This document shows, piece by piece, positions 19,634 through 48,083 of a stretch of 59,777 nucleotides of DNA. The notes below the pieces were generated by a model, which did no database searches, was not told the DNA's origin, and was given only the letters and a program-made list of their open reading frames with translations. Location of the stretch: NCBI GenBank assembly GCA_902515455.1, contig CABXUO010000003.1:1-59777 (forward strand). The letters run 5' to 3'. The DNA comes from an uncultured SAR86 cluster bacterium. GTDB taxonomy: Bacteria > Pseudomonadota > Gammaproteobacteria > Magnimaribacterales > D2472. Within the stretch, counting starts at the first letter, position 1; each line of letters begins with the position of its first letter. The position numbers and the translations under genes were made by a program.

Positions 19634-19709
19634 GCGGGAATAGCTCAGTTGGTAGAGCGCAACCTTGCCAAGGTTGAGGTCGCCAGTTCGAACCTGGTTT
19701 CCCGCTCCA
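19634..19709 (+). tRNA. tRNA-Gly (anticodon GCC)
   Basis: A manual cloverleaf fits: acceptor GCGGGAA/TTCCCGC, anticodon loop TTGCCAA, T-loop TTCGAAC, and an encoded CCA. Confidence 0.95.
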
Positions 19710-26450: not shown

Positions 26451-28499
26451 ATGAAAATCCCTACAAATAAAAATATCGCCAAAACTCTTTTATTTTTTAT
26501 AGTTTTTTTGAATTTAAATATATCTTCAGAAGAATTATCAGATGCTGAAAGTTTTTTTAGCCGCGAGGCCCCAACCTATCCAACAGCGGATAACTTGCTC
26601 GGGTGGATAGATTCAAGAAACATTACCTCCCTAAATGGTGAGTGGACTTACATAATTGATCCAATGAATAATGGTTTACCAGAATCCTCTTTTTTTGGTG
26701 GATTTCCAAAAAATAAAACTCAAAAAACTGGAATGGAGCTAATTGAATACAATTTTGAGGATGCAGAAAAAATTCAAATACCAGGCGCTTGGAATGCTCA
26801 AGATGAAAAATTATTATTTTACAGAGGACCAGTTTGGCTGTTTAAAAAATTTAATCATTCATCAAAACAAAATGTTTTAACCCATCTGTATATTGAAGGC
26901 AGTAACTTTACAACAAAGGTATTTGTGAATGGGTCTATTGTAGGTGAATTTGAGGGTGGTTATGTTCCTTTTAACTTTGATATTTCCCAGTTTCTAAATG
27001 ATGGCGAGAACATTTTGTTAGTCCAAACAGATAATACTCTCAATGAGTCCACTGTTCCCACTCACAAGACAGATTGGTGGCCTTGGGGAGGTATTGTTGG
27101 TGACGTATATCTTGTTCAGACTCCAAATGAATATATCAGAAACGCATATTTACAACTGAACCCAGATGATTTTTCTCAAGCTATCTTTAAATTACAAATG
27201 GCAACTAAATCATCTCAACAAAAAGTAATTTTGGAGATTCCTGAACTTAATTACAAAGAAGAGTTTGGAACAGATTCTTCAGGATTAATTCAAGAAAATA
27301 TCATCATTACTCCAGAGCTTTGGTCGCCCTCAAATCCTAAGCTCTATAAAGTGATTATTTCATCACAAAATGAGTCAATATCCGATGAAATAGGTTTTCG
27401 TTCCATTAAAACAAAGGGCCAAAAGATTTTTTTAAATGATAATGAGATAAAGTTTAAGGGAATTGCTATGCACTCTGAGCCTATCGGTATGCCAGGACCA
27501 GCTTTCTCAAAAGAACATTTTAAAAAATTGCTCTCCACAGCTGCGGATTTAAATATTAATTTTATCAGAGCTGCGCATTATCCATATACCCGACATTTAG
27601 CAAAGGTTGCGGATCAAATCGGGTTAATGGTTTGGGAAGAGATTCCTGTGTATTGGAATATTGATTGGAAAAATCCCGTTACGTTGAATATAGCAAAAGA
27701 TCAGATTAATAGATTAGTTAAAAGAGATCACAATCGGGCATCTGTTGTAGTTTGGTCAGTAGCTAATGAAACTCCTTTTTCAATACCGAGAATGACATTT
27801 TTAAATACCTTATTATCTGAAATTAACCATCATGATTCATCTCGATTAACCACGGCTGCTCTTCTTTCAGGTAATGAAGAGCAATTTAGATCTTTGGTAA
27901 TTGTTTTGGCATTACATGGCGTTAAATCTCAATGGGTTAATTCAAGAGAAAAAATGATATTTAAATCAATCTTAGATAAGGCAAATATACCGATCGACTC
28001 AAAGTTAAGTTTTTCTATCTCAATTGATGACCCCCTTGGTAAAAATGTTGATTTGATTTCTTACAATGAGTACTTTGGTTGGTACTACGTTACATTTTTT
28101 ACTGAGCAAATGATGATTCCAGAGGGAACTCTTAGAAGATTAATGTTTGAAGTCATGCCAGAGATAAAAATTAGTTCTTCATTCAATAAACCAATTCATA
28201 TTTCAGAATTCGGTGCTGGCGCTAAGTATGGAAATCATACTGACAAAATATGGTCGGAGGGATATCAAGCTAAGGTATATTCAGGCCAATTAGAAATGCT
28301 TTCTAGAAATCCTCAGGTTCAAGGAATTAGCCCCTGGGTTCTCAAAGATTTTAGAGCTATGTTGAGACCGTTGCCAGGTATTCAGGATTTTTATAACAGA
28401 AAAGGTTTAATTGATGAAAACGGAAATAAGAAAGAAGCTTTCAAAGTTTTGGCTGATTTTTATAAAAATCAATGGGATGAAAATTTAATACAAAATTAA
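26451..28499 (+). CDS. Glycoside hydrolase family 2 protein, secreted
   Basis: 682 aa with a signal peptide and GH2 sugar-binding, Ig-like and TIM-barrel domains. The acid/base region is VVWSVANE. Confidence 0.8.
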   Translation: MKIPTNKNIAKTLLFFIVFLNLNISSEELSDAESFFSREAPTYPTADNLLGWIDSRNITSLNGEWTYIIDPMNNGLPESSFFGGFPKNKTQKTGMELIEYNFEDAEKIQIPGAWNAQDEKLLFYRGPVWLFKKFNHSSKQNVLTHLYIEGSNFTTKVFVNGSIVGEFEGGYVPFNFDISQFLNDGENILLVQTDNTLNESTVPTHKTDWWPWGGIVGDVYLVQTPNEYIRNAYLQLNPDDFSQAIFKLQMATKSSQQKVILEIPELNYKEEFGTDSSGLIQENIIITPELWSPSNPKLYKVIISSQNESISDEIGFRSIKTKGQKIFLNDNEIKFKGIAMHSEPIGMPGPAFSKEHFKKLLSTAADLNINFIRAAHYPYTRHLAKVADQIGLMVWEEIPVYWNIDWKNPVTLNIAKDQINRLVKRDHNRASVVVWSVANETPFSIPRMTFLNTLLSEINHHDSSRLTTAALLSGNEEQFRSLVIVLALHGVKSQWVNSREKMIFKSILDKANIPIDSKLSFSISIDDPLGKNVDLISYNEYFGWYYVTFFTEQMMIPEGTLRRLMFEVMPEIKISSSFNKPIHISEFGAGAKYGNHTDKIWSEGYQAKVYSGQLEMLSRNPQVQGISPWVLKDFRAMLRPLPGIQDFYNRKGLIDENGNKKEAFKVLADFYKNQWDENLIQN

Positions 28500-28522
28500 T
28501 TATATTTTTTTTACAAAAAGTA

Positions 28523-28550
28523 TTGACTCTATTAACTATAGGCGTATATT
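28523..28550 (+). promoter_or_regulatory. Near-consensus sigma70 promoter of RNA copy 1
   Basis: TTGACT (28523..28528), a 16-nt spacer and TATATT (28545..28550). Both hexamers are conserved in copy 2, while the spacer differs at 3 positions. Confidence 0.7.
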
Positions 28551-28556
28551 TAATAG

Positions 28557-28775
28557 ACCAACTTGGACTGACCTACAAACAACTGCAGACGGGAGTAGGA
28601 GAGAAAGAGGAGGAAGAGACGAAGGGCGAAAGCGTTACTAAGAGTCGACGATAAAAAAGAGCTTAGTAGCCCACCAAGGAGGAGAGAGAAGGCCTCTAAG
28701 GAGCTAAAGAGATTCTCACTTTAGACCCCTTCCAATCTCGAATTGAAAAGACAGAGCTTAGCTCTGTTTTTTTTT
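28557..28775 (+). ncRNA. Candidate novel purine/GGA-rich non-coding RNA, copy 1 (about 220 nt)
   Basis: It runs from the predicted TSS about 7 nt after the -10 to the terminator T-run. Neither strand has an ATG/GTG/TTG ORF. It has 7 GGA motifs, and 92 of 120 nt at 28591..28710 are purines. A second copy is identical over the last 195 nt of the repeat. Confidence 0.65.
28751..28775 (+). terminator. Intrinsic terminator of RNA copy 1
   Basis: ACAGAGC stem, TTA loop, GCTCTGT stem, followed by a T-run that makes nine consecutive T with the last stem base. Confidence 0.85.
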
Positions 28776-28807
28776 GCTTATAATTTATTACTTATTGAAA
28801 AAAGTTC

Positions 28808-29650
28808 ATGCATCGGAATAAAACAGCATTAATTGTTGAGGGTGGAGGAAGCAGGGGTGTTTTTTCTTTTGGTGTCATTGATTCATTTATCAAAGCTTCT
28901 TTCAATCCATTCAACATGCATTTCGGAGTATCTAATGGAGCAGTTGTGCAGCTATGGTATTTATTAAAAGTATCAGATTACAACCTAGATAAAATGTTAT
29001 TTTCTGCATCAAAAAAGTATGTTAGGTATTCAAATATTCTTTTTAACAAAAGCATTATGAATTTTGAGAAACTCTACCAAGATGCTAATAAAGTTTTTCC
29101 AATTGATTTTGATCGCTTGCAAAGAAATTTAGATGGAAAAAATTTTTATGTTGTAGTTTCTGATGGTGAAACAGCAAAATCTGAATATATTGAGCTATCT
29201 AGAGAAAATTATATAAATGAAATGCTTGCTACTGGATCTCTACCTGTTCTAATGAAAAATCCAATAATACTTAATAATAAAAGAAAATTTGATGGAGGAA
29301 TTACTGATCCACTACCAGTAAAAAAAGCCTACGAGATGGGAGCTCGAGATATAACCCTTATTAGAACTTATGAAGAAACTTTTATAAGAAAAACTAAGTT
29401 TGAAAATTACATAGCTGCGCTTGCAACAAGATCATACCCAAATATTTCGCGAGCTTTAATCTATAATACCAAAACATATAATTCTGCACTCGAGTTTATT
29501 AAAAATCCTCCAAGTGATTGCAATATTACACAAATTTGTCCCCCGTATCGATTAAAGACTAAGCGAGCTACGACTAATCATTCAACAATGAAAGCAGATT
29601 ATTTGCTTGGTACTCAAATTGGCCAACGATTTCTTAAGAAATTTTTATAA
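28808..29650 (+). CDS. Patatin-like phospholipase
   Basis: 280 aa with the oxyanion motif GGGSRG, nucleophile GVSNGA (GxSxG) and catalytic Asp motif DGGITDP. Confidence 0.85.
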   Translation: MHRNKTALIVEGGGSRGVFSFGVIDSFIKASFNPFNMHFGVSNGAVVQLWYLLKVSDYNLDKMLFSASKKYVRYSNILFNKSIMNFEKLYQDANKVFPIDFDRLQRNLDGKNFYVVVSDGETAKSEYIELSRENYINEMLATGSLPVLMKNPIILNNKRKFDGGITDPLPVKKAYEMGARDITLIRTYEETFIRKTKFENYIAALATRSYPNISRALIYNTKTYNSALEFIKNPPSDCNITQICPPYRLKTKRATTNHSTMKADYLLGTQIGQRFLKKFL

Positions 29651-29790
29651 TCAAATCAAACCTGATTGATGTTTAATTAAAGTATGCAGATGTTATGCAT
29701 TCCGATGAAATTTTTAAATAGAAATTTTTTATCTAACTAACTCATATCCAGTTATTTTTTTAAATAGTTATATTTTTTTTATTATAGGTG

Positions 29791-29818
29791 TTGACTCTAT
29801 TTTCTAGAGGCGTATATT
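29791..29818 (+). promoter_or_regulatory. Near-consensus sigma70 promoter of RNA copy 2
   Basis: TTGACT (29791..29796), a 16-nt spacer and TATATT (29813..29818). Confidence 0.7.
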
Positions 29819-29824
29819 TAATAG

Positions 29825-30043
29825 ACCAACTCAGACTGACCTACAAGCAACTGCAGACGGGAGTAGGAGAGAAAGAGGAGGAAGAGACGAAGGGCGAAAG
29901 CGTTACTAAGAGTCGACGATAAAAAAGAGCTTAGTAGCCCACCAAGGAGGAGAGAGAAGGCCTCTAAGGAGCTAAAGAGATTCTCACTTTAGACCCCTTC
30001 CAATCTCGAATTGAAAAGACAGAGCTTAGCTCTGTTTTTTTTT
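29825..30043 (+). ncRNA. Candidate novel purine/GGA-rich non-coding RNA, copy 2
   Basis: It has the same architecture as copy 1. 29851..30045 is identical to 28583..28777. Confidence 0.65.
30019..30043 (+). terminator. Intrinsic terminator of RNA copy 2
   Basis: The hairpin and T-run are identical to those at 28751..28775. Confidence 0.85.
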
Positions 30044-30076
30044 GCCTTTATCACTAACTTTAATGACTATTACGCT

Positions 30077-30703
30077 ATGCTCAAAGAGCTACTTGAAAAT
30101 ACTATATTGCTATTTGTTGCTGTTGATCCCATTGCATTAATTCCCATTTTTGCAAGTCTCACAAAAGGATTTAATAAAAGCGATATAAAAAAAATTTATA
30201 TACAAGCAACCATCGTTGCATTTTTTGTACTTGCTATATTTTATCTTTTAGGTACATCAGTATTAGACATTATGGGGATTTCAATGAGCTCCTTCAAAAT
30301 AATTGGCGGCTTATTTTTAATTGCTATTGCATTTCAAATGGTATTAGAGCAAAGACAATCAAGAAGAGAAAATACTGCTGAAGTTGCATTAGATGATGTA
30401 TCAATTCAGTCTATAGCGATATTTCCCTTAGCCATTCCGCTGATAGCTGGACCTGGAGCAATGACTACAGCCCTTCTTATTGCTGAGTCAAATGAAAGTA
30501 ATTCCATTGAAATTTTAATAAATTTTATTCCCATTTTTATAATTATTATTATTGCTGCATTATCTATGTGGCTTTCTGCAAATCTATCTAAGAGAGTGGG
30601 GCCAACTATTATCATTGTTGTTGAAAAGATCTTTGGGATATTGTTGGGAGCTTTAGCAATAGAATTTGTTGTATCAGGAATAAGAGAGTCATTTAATTTA
30701 TAA
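30077..30703 (+). CDS. MarC-family (UPF0056) integral membrane protein
   Basis: MLKELLENTILLFVAVDPIALIPIF.. is typical of the MarC family, with six hydrophobic segments. The ORF-track start at 30011 reads through the RNA terminator, so I reject it in favour of the ATG at 30077. Confidence 0.8.
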   Translation: MLKELLENTILLFVAVDPIALIPIFASLTKGFNKSDIKKIYIQATIVAFFVLAIFYLLGTSVLDIMGISMSSFKIIGGLFLIAIAFQMVLEQRQSRRENTAEVALDDVSIQSIAIFPLAIPLIAGPGAMTTALLIAESNESNSIEILINFIPIFIIIIIAALSMWLSANLSKRVGPTIIIVVEKIFGILLGALAIEFVVSGIRESFNL

Positions 30704-48008: not shown

Positions 48009-48083
48009 GCGGCATTAGTATAATGGCTAGTATATCTGCCTTCCAAGCAGATGGTCCGAGTTCGAATCTCGGATGCCGCACCA
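48009..48083 (+). tRNA. tRNA-Gly (anticodon UCC)
   Basis: A manual cloverleaf fits: acceptor GCGGCAT/ATGCCGC, anticodon stem TCTGC/GCAGA with loop CTTCCAA, T-arm CCGAG-TTCGAAT-CTCGG, and an encoded CCA. Confidence 0.93.

Follow-up and report, generated by a model that had tools for sequence, protein, structure and literature searches.

The IMES-1 RNA motif was reportedly described by Weinberg et al. in 2009 (Nature 462:656), and in metatranscriptomes from the Pacific its transcripts are said to be as abundant as 5S rRNA or more so. Here, we describe two copies of an IMES-1 gene in a 59,777-nucleotide (nt) stretch of the genome of an uncultured SAR86 cluster bacterium (contig CABXUO010000003.1, positions 1 to 59,777 of the forward strand; this whole stretch is called the window below). 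According to Dupont et al. (2012, ISME J 6:1186; PMC3358033), few uncultivated lineages of bacteria in the surface ocean are as abundant as SAR86. The same paper places an abundant metatranscriptome noncoding RNA (ncRNA) in a SAR86 sugar-uptake region, draws more than one copy of it in its Fig. 5, traces its first sighting to the metatranscriptomes of Shi et al. (2009), and infers RNA-based control of carbon assimilation. That ncRNA shares with the IMES-1 copies of the window both the host clade and a variable region holding genes for glucose uptake, glycolysis, and the pentose-phosphate pathway; the name IMES-1 is not used by Dupont et al.

Comparison with other structured RNAs is instructive for the loops discussed below. 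Kretsch et al. (2025; PMC12286853) identified OLE L9.3 and GOLLD L21a by cryo-electron microscopy (cryo-EM) as symmetric kissing loops in homo-oligomers and used palindromic covariation of adjacent loop nucleotides as support for such contacts. A loop palindrome with covarying adjacent central nucleotides is common to OLE, GOLLD, ROOL, and the P3 loop of IMES-1. However, the three larger RNAs measure 600 to 850 nt and form complexes that cryo-EM has visualized, whereas IMES-1 measures about 215 nt and is known from its sequence, and there is no homology in sequence or fold. The dimerization initiation site (DIS) of HIV-1 and other palindromic kissing hairpins likewise present a 6-nt self-complementary loop sequence, although the loops of IMES-1 are larger (18 to 19 nt versus 9 nt in the DIS) and belong to a bacterial small RNA (sRNA) instead of a viral genome. 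Finally, 6S RNA and CsrB/RsmY/RsmZ are, like IMES-1, stand-alone, noncoding, and sometimes multicopy RNAs, and they are highly expressed, as IMES-1 is reported to be; IMES-1 differs from them in having no Rfam similarity to them, no repeated GGA hairpins, and no 6S-like rod.

We scanned the whole window against Rfam 15 and obtained two plus-strand matches to RF02034, the IMES-1 RNA motif, with scores of 192.0 and 192.2 bits (E values of ∼1e-43; gathering score, 81) that covered the whole model. The module has the same helices, conserved junction sequences, and marine origin as the family, and nothing excludes membership; that both copies are genes for IMES-1 RNA is virtually certain. An earlier note on this DNA, made from its letters alone, had been unable to assign the module to any known class. 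This part of the note did not survive the end-to-end RF02034 match, whereas its guess that the module might be an orphan motif of marine metagenomes or metatranscriptomes in a SAR86-like genome turned out to be right, the motif being IMES-1 and the host SAR86. The confident Rfam match removes the novelty but not the function: IMES-1 is a described RNA family, and the module is a rediscovery and not a new class. For this family, we add the genome context (SAR86 and a few other marine Gammaproteobacteria), the boundaries set by promoter and terminator, the number of copies and their concerted evolution, and evidence that loops are self-complementary. No other family approached this score at the two sites; a match of each terminator hairpin to AgrB (RF02891; positions 28700 to 28775 and 29968 to 30043) stayed below the gathering score (30.7 bits versus 40) and was disregarded. 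We consider the overall reading, including its conditional parts, likely: two paralogous IMES-1 genes on the chromosome of a SAR86-clade gammaproteobacterium.

The window contains one repeat family (positions 28494 to 28782 and 29762 to 30050), which is 289 nt long with 95% identity and a spacing of 1268. The two 277-bp direct repeats that the earlier note had placed within it (28501 to 28777 and 29769 to 30045) were confirmed as described: a gap-free comparison gave 11 mismatches, all within the first 82 nt (copy 1 positions 28514, 28515, 28517, 28519, 28522, 28534, 28535, 28539, 28564, 28565, and 28579), and none in the last 195 nt. As it had also stated, the TTGACT (28523 to 28528) and TATATT (28545 to 28550) hexamers are intact in both copies, with no mismatch in either, and each copy ends in a hairpin and T-run (28751 to 28775 and 30019 to 30043). 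The description of a purine-rich RNA in AT-rich surroundings is equally accurate: the 219-nt unit (28557 to 28775) has a purine content of 61.6% and a G+C content of 45%, versus 51% and 34% in the whole window, and the longest ATG/GTG/TTG frame on either strand of this unit has just 11 codons. A pattern search yielded two matches in the window versus none in 100 shuffles, which together with the Rfam E value excludes a chance origin of the duplicated module.

To define the host range, we combined three conserved blocks of IMES-1 into a search pattern and applied it to a collection in which each GTDB species is represented by a single genome. The scan returned 94 stretches, of which 91 were true and lay on 78 genomes. 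The other three, which would have made hosts of Acidobacteria (Pyrinomonadaceae, Chloracidobacterium, and Acidobacteriota metagenome-assembled genomes [MAGs]), had no Rfam match and were rejected as chance matches. Most host genomes are titled SAR86 cluster, including the complete or near-complete chromosomes CP097973.1 and OX044367.1; the few others are from SAR92/Porticoccaceae, Halieaceae, two assemblies labeled Woeseiaceae, and unclassified Gammaproteobacteria (MAGs and single-cell genomes). All rescanned non-SAR86 or divergent loci scored above the Rfam threshold (103 to 195 bits), and the hosts, namely marine SAR86, SAR92/Porticoccaceae, Halieaceae, and relatives, agree with the marine origin of the family. 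For the window itself, proteins around the repeat are 92 to 99% identical to those of the SAR86 single-cell genome AH-321-G13, and exact copies of the patatin-like gene that lies between the two IMES-1 copies were found only on short marine metagenome contigs, including those from TARA. In the two assemblies labeled Woeseiaceae (L081, a MAG, and L089, a single-cell genome), IMES-1 scores 190 to 195 bits, as high as the SAR86 copies, and the L089 sequence resembles one SAR86 subgroup. These two cases may reflect assembly mislabeling or contamination instead of a wider host range.

For comparative analysis, we extracted 87 homologous units, 81 of which (78 distinct) were aligned from promoter to terminator. 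With the Rfam consensus mapped on this alignment, 93.3% of cells were paired compared with 78.1% in shuffles (0 of 500 reached the observed value) and 30 to 49% in slid controls, and the covariation score was 0.403 compared with 0.138 in shuffles. More than half of the consensus pairs (27 of 47) vary on both sides, and several types of compensatory pair were seen in each of the helices P1a, P2, P3, P4, and P5; support for P1, the outer helix, is weak (67% paired). RNAalifold without guidance recovered P1a, P3, P4, P5, and the terminator and left both loop palindromes unpaired, and the single-sequence fold has a z-score of -2.6. The IMES-1 fold comprising P1a, P2, P3, P4, and P5 is kept by compensatory changes across the 78 genomes.

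No reading frame is conserved among the homologues, whose longest open reading frames (ORFs) vary in strand, frame, and extent and are altogether absent from the clade of the window. A small-protein gene was rejected on these grounds and on the 11-codon maximum in the window. The central claim of the earlier note, a functional, independently transcribed noncoding RNA gene present in two copies, is therefore well supported by promoters and terminators conserved in 78 genomes, by helices that covary among the relatives, as it had suggested checking, and by the lack of the conserved frame that it had named as counterevidence. An all-against-all covariation scan for further pseudoknots gave nothing convincing beyond the known helices and the palindrome. 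By inspection, we found that the P4 and P5 loops hold GAGA and UCUC, respectively, which are 100% pairable, with two compensatory events (AAGA/UCUU in loci L060 and L063, and GGGA/UCCC in locus L036) and no one-sided change; these few events would fit a 4-bp loop-loop contact.

Upstream of the RNA body, 79 of the 87 units have a -35 element of the form TTGA(C/T)N with a 15- to 18-nt spacer and TAnnnT. TTGACN is present in 78 units, and the variants among the 79 are TTGACA (46), TTGACT (24), TTGACG (7), TTGACC (1), and TTGATA (1). The spacer is 16 nt long in all but two of these promoters (77/79), the -10 element is TATATT in 48 and TAATAT in 23, and GTG directly precedes the -35 element in 57. 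The stretch from -60 to -38 is 89% A+T across the 79 promoters, with a run of at least five T in 78 of them, and it resembles the Escherichia coli UP-element consensus. Spacer sequences and sequences further upstream diverge freely among units. Promoter-like sites in the 2-kb region were not above chance (7 found versus 7.5 in shuffles), and the promoter is thus supported by cross-species conservation and not by site count. The architecture is that predicted for a very strong sigma-70-type promoter with an UP-like element.

In contrast to the promoter-like sites, terminator-like sites in the region exceeded expectation (9 versus 1.0). A CAGAGC/GCUCUG hairpin followed by 8 to 10 U occurs in all clades with a nearly invariant stem sequence, and an A-run on its other side means that it can terminate in both directions. 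Across families, the near invariance of the stem next to a variable loop is more conservation than termination alone needs, and the hairpin may in addition bind a protein or contribute to stability. Based on the conserved promoter and terminator, each IMES-1 copy is very probably an independent, self-contained transcription unit of about 219 nt, and there is good support for the view that IMES-1 would be transcribed at a high level and that an RNA of about 215 nt would be released at the terminator. An ORF frame at 30011 to 30703 was listed from a TTG inside the copy 2 terminator; the MarC-family gene in this frame more likely starts from the ATG at 30077.

The P3 loop contains a hexamer that takes ten states among the 78 distinct sequences: GUCGAC (46), GUUAAC (8), GUAUAC (7), GCUAGC (5), GUCGGC (3), GUCGAU (3), GUGCAU (2), GCCGGC (2), GUUGAC (1), and CCCGGU (1). 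With G.U pairs allowed, it is self-complementary in 77 of these sequences and in nine of the ten states, compared with 5.3% of random hexamers. When its three symmetric pairs were scored as formal pairs, 99.6% of cells paired: the central pair is C-G (55), U-A (13), A-U (7), G-C (2), or U.G (1); the second is U-A (67), C-G (8), or U.G (3); and the outer is G-C (72) or G.U (5), with one sequence unpaired. Slid controls for both palindromes together gave 22 to 33% for shifts of 1 to 2 columns and 62% for a shift of +3; the value for -3 was 90%, but it is based on just two countable pairs.

These states have arisen repeatedly. On a neighbor-joining tree built without the hexamer columns, the hexamer underwent at least 14 state changes and its central pair at least 7, always to a pairable dinucleotide. 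The central pair also ranked eleventh in an unbiased scan of all column pairs, among true helix pairs, and nearest-neighbor energies predicted for the 6-bp hexamer duplexes ranged from -5 to -14 kcal/mol. Since adjacent nucleotides cannot pair within one chain, the constraint on the central pair suggests that two molecules pair with each other. Of the 18 possible single substitutions, exactly 3 give a wobble pair, and these are the ones observed (GUCGAU, GUCGGC, and GUUGAC); in GUGCAU, a compensatory change of the central pair is accompanied by a wobble at the outer pair. Because all four imperfect variants are G.U compatible, a constraint on the RNA is favored over a DNA palindrome. On balance, we slightly favor the hypothesis that two IMES-1 molecules pair via the P3-loop hexamer as a symmetric kissing-loop homodimer.

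The palindrome of the P1a loop has two states, CUGCAG in 73 of the 78 distinct sequences and CUUAAG in 5, and no other. When 241 million metagenome records were searched for CU(A/C)NAG variants in an IMES-1 context, no IMES-1 was found; the sole four matches were judged to be due to chance, since none of them was IMES-1-like and the three that were rescanned had no Rfam match. The lack of such variants suggests that this loop is more tightly constrained than pairing alone needs. CUGCAG may nonetheless provide a second self-contact. Whether the P3-loop dimer and the P1a contact together make IMES-1 a naturally self-assembling RNA, forming dimers, tetramers, rings, or chains with the oligomer as the functional unit, we judge to be an evenly balanced question. 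Self-complementary loops or oligomerization of IMES-1 are not mentioned in the searchable literature, which does not cover the original 2009 description.

Several points weigh against this account. In locus L093 the hexamer is CCCGGU, and only a 4-bp CCGG core is left of the palindrome. The five CUUAAG sequences are the most divergent clade and represent a single compensatory event, and the P1a loop, with flanks that are invariant too, could be a protein-binding or tertiary-contact site. Constraint on the palindromes at the DNA level retains a residual probability, transitions being common anyway, and the evidence for dimerization is entirely comparative. The 5' and 3' ends of the RNA are likewise placed by promoter and terminator conservation. 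Lastly, the ncRNA of Dupont et al. is equated with IMES-1 from its host and position, not from its sequence.

At least 20 of the 78 genomes carry two or more copies. The IMES-1/patatin/IMES-1 arrangement of the window recurs in four other loci (L047, L061, L076, and L091), and in two more (L054 and L068) a tandem IMES-1 pair flanks patatin and MarC genes. Single-copy relatives have the order GH2/IMES-1/SSF or GH2/IMES-1/MarC with no gene between, and the nearest relative, AH-321-G13, has two IMES-1 copies ∼10 kb apart. The patatin gene does not belong to the RNA but forms a variable cassette, whose gain or loss the direct repeats may permit by homologous recombination. Five marine metagenome contigs that encode the exact patatin protein are 1.1 to 4.2 kb long, and four of them end in or beside the IMES-1 repeat, indicating that the repeat breaks short-read assemblies. 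Such breakage may be why IMES-1 was long without genome context.

The two parts of the repeat have different histories. Upstream flanks group by position, with 3 mismatches between copy 1 and locus L070 and 7 between copy 2 and locus L018 compared with 37 to 39 between paralogues (39 between the window copies). The bodies group by genome, with 3 mismatches between the window copies compared with 4 to 6 to their orthologues, and they are identical within 6 of 13 two-copy genomes. Because the upstream flanks are orthologous between species, the duplication is old, and the transcribed parts have presumably been homogenized by gene conversion (concerted evolution). Old paralogues with homogenized bodies account for a repeat in which the 5' flank diverges and the body is perfectly conserved.

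Gene order around the module in the window is malate synthase G, DUF1330, GH2/IMES-1/patatin-like lipase/IMES-1/MarC, SSF symporter, glucokinase, 6-phosphogluconolactonase, and GH3. This context is shared by many SAR86 species, in which IMES-1 lies between malate synthase G/DUF1330/(GH2) and (MarC)/SSF symporter/glucokinase/(6-phosphogluconolactonase)/GH3. Outside SAR86, the neighbors are a typA/bipA GTPase, an alpha/beta-hydrolase, SDR, an MFS transporter, an Lrp/AsnC regulator, and tRNA genes. Convergent genes often end 4 to 17 nt past the terminator. Given that a convergent gene follows nearly half of the copies and that neighbors vary between clades, we conclude with good confidence that IMES-1 acts in trans as a stand-alone RNA and not as a leader. 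In three loci from SAR92/Porticoccaceae and a divergent gammaproteobacterial clade (L010, L093, and L020), IMES-1 lies 0.4 to 1.1 kb from a divergently oriented gene for the ribosome-associated GTPase TypA/BipA, with a hydrolase or tRNA gene between; this site may be an ancestral location or a second conserved neighborhood.

How such an RNA would act in the cell is the question on which the alternatives differ. A trans-acting base-pairing or chaperone-dependent sRNA could tune the SSF symporter, glucokinase, pentose-phosphate, and glycoside-hydrolase genes; this role is compatible with the stand-alone, dimerizing RNA preferred here and differs from it in the cellular task. The long U-tail of the terminator and the purine-rich single strands fit an Hfq-type sRNA, IMES-1 lies among sugar genes in many SAR86 species, and Dupont et al. 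(PMC3358033) infer the same kind of control. As functional evidence, however, the link to sugar genes is weakened by the other neighbors of the non-SAR86 clades; it is specific to SAR86, and the synteny may reflect vertical inheritance and not function. Conservation also extends over nearly every junction and loop of the 190-nt fold, with no short seed, which suggests a compact particle with a specific partner. We therefore regard a sugar regulator as unlikely. Sequestration of a protein, either by a CsrB/RsmY-type sponge for CsrA or by a 6S-type mimic for RNA polymerase, would suit an RNA that is reportedly abundant, purine-rich, strongly promoted, and present in more than one copy per genome, with several GGA/AGGA motifs in the window copy. 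Yet only one GGA is conserved among the 81 aligned units (in AAGGAGC between P4 and P5), others having become GAA, AGA, or GUU, and the conserved one sits in a junction instead of a hairpin loop; the sponge idea was dropped for this reason. IMES-1 folds around a multihelix junction and not as a rod with a central bubble, and none of the CsrB, Rsm, or 6S families of Rfam matches the region from 28400 to 30200, even when E values up to 1 are allowed, making this class of explanation improbable.

Two further alternatives would remove the stand-alone RNA altogether. If IMES-1 were a cis-acting leader or attenuator, regulated read-through of its terminator would control the downstream gene in the manner of a riboswitch. 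The downstream genes of the window do start just 32 to 33 nt past each U-run, an interval that contains no good promoter, and the gene downstream is codirectional in 47 of 86 copies. It is convergent in the other 39, however, which led us to drop the idea, and the codirectional genes (patatin, MarC, SSF symporter, glucokinase, and others) are mutually unrelated and form no coherent set. The terminator is moreover strong and invariant, with no covarying anti-terminator pairing, and a leader is very improbable. It is harder still to credit that the module is a DNA repeat only, such as a recombination scar or mobile-element end, with protein-binding or restriction-type palindromes. The copies do flank a variable cassette, and every loop hexamer, read as DNA, is a classical 6-bp palindrome or close to one, but a mere repeat would not explain compensatory changes in five helices, a promoter and terminator in the right places, a full-length Rfam match, or imperfect hexamers that are G.U compatible, and there is no integrase or transposase near the module.

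Viral sequence collections offered a further view of the RNA. In IMG/VR, only two contigs carry IMES-1, in both cases as a fragment at the contig end: IMGVR_UViG_3300016740_000053 (L007, positions 1 to 140) and IMGVR_UViG_3300016733_000119 (L006, positions 1 to 143). In the former, the junction falls within the P5 loop, and the partner is a picorna-like RNA virus with domains for RNA helicase, RdRP_1, and the Rhv and Dicistro_VP4 capsid proteins; in the latter, the partner is a T7-like head-tail connector gene that is truncated. We therefore rejected phage-borne IMES-1 and treat both contigs as probable chimeric assemblies from RNA-derived libraries. The partner of the picorna-like fusion being an RNA virus, this fusion points to cDNA, and the chimeras hint that IMES-1 RNA was abundant in the source samples.

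Coordinates of the module are collected in Table 1. Beyond the module, the region from 20960 to 44433 is rich in genes for carbohydrate and lipid use (GH2, GH3, CBM9-like, sulfatase, SSF symporter, glucokinase, 6-phosphogluconolactonase, malate synthase G, the patatin-like lipase, and a cyclopropane-fatty-acid-synthase-like methyltransferase) and also contains a photolyase, a content that fits published SAR86 metabolism. Two plus-strand tRNA genes lie at 19634 to 19706 and 48009 to 48080 (RF00005, ∼70 bits).

Table 1. Positions in the window of the features of the two IMES-1 copies and of the gene between them
Feature	Position	Strand	Evidence or remark
Copy 1 UP-like A/T-rich tract 5' of -35	28499..28520	+	ATTATATTTTTTTTACAAAAAG, read directly from the sequence
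Copy 1 promoter: TTGACT, 16-nt spacer, TATATT	28523..28550	+	10/12 consensus matches
Copy 1 putative transcription start	near 28557	+	
Copy 1 IMES-1 RNA body	28562..28751	+	RF02034, 192.0 bits, E = 1.9e-43, model positions 1-191/191
Copy 1 P1	28562-28565/28606-28609	+	Rfam structure mapped
Copy 1 P1a	28572-28576/28595-28599	+	Rfam structure mapped
Copy 1 P2	28621-28625/28728-28732	+	Rfam structure mapped
Copy 1 P3	28634-28642/28662-28670	+	Rfam structure mapped
Copy 1 P4	28678-28682/28693-28697	+	Rfam structure mapped
Copy 1 P5	28704-28709/28719-28724	+	Rfam structure mapped
Copy 1 palindrome CUGCAG in 18-nt P1a loop	28583..28588	+	
Copy 1 self-complementary hexamer GUCGAC in 19-nt P3 loop	28644..28649	+	Proposed symmetric kissing-loop site
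Copy 1 GAGA in P4 loop	28686..28689	+	Candidate 4-bp loop-loop pairing with UCUC
Copy 1 UCUC in P5 loop	28714..28717	+	Candidate partner of GAGA
Copy 1 intrinsic terminator ACAGAGC-UUA-GCUCUGU and U-run	28751..28775	+	A-run before
Intervening gene: patatin-like phospholipase with DUF6363, 280 aa	28808..29650	+	Pfam PF01734, PF19890
Copy 2 UP-like A/T tract	29767-29788	+	
Copy 2 promoter: -35 TTGACT; -10 TATATT	29791-29796; 29813-29818	+	16-nt spacer, 10/12 consensus matches
Copy 2 putative transcription start	near 29825	+	
Copy 2 IMES-1 RNA body	29830..30019	+	RF02034, 192.2 bits, E = 1.7e-43, full length
Copy 2 palindromes CUGCAG; GUCGAC	29851-29856; 29912-29917	+	
Copy 2 P4/P5 loop elements	29954-29957, 29982-29985	+	
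Copy 2 intrinsic terminator hairpin and U-run	30019..30043	+	

Returning to the stand-alone, dimerizing RNA that we prefer, we propose that a strong promoter would drive each IMES-1 copy and that the RNA, released at its intrinsic terminator, would act in trans as a folded particle. The GUCGAC hexamers in the P3 loops of two molecules would pair in the symmetric kissing-loop homodimer, and the CUGCAG of the P1a loops would add the second contact that allows higher-order assemblies. The reported abundance of IMES-1 suggests, as a guess, that the particle has a stoichiometric role in binding, sequestering, or scaffolding, and not one in antisense control of the adjacent sugar genes.

The comparison yields a usable IMES-1 gene model, with a promoter, start, terminator, copy number, and host range. 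For an RNA that has had no assigned function since 2009, the covarying palindromic loop is a concrete, testable physical hypothesis that could lead to its function. If true, it would mean that RNA-only quaternary structures such as those of OLE, GOLLD, and ROOL also occur in a marine RNA that is far smaller and is reported to be abundant.

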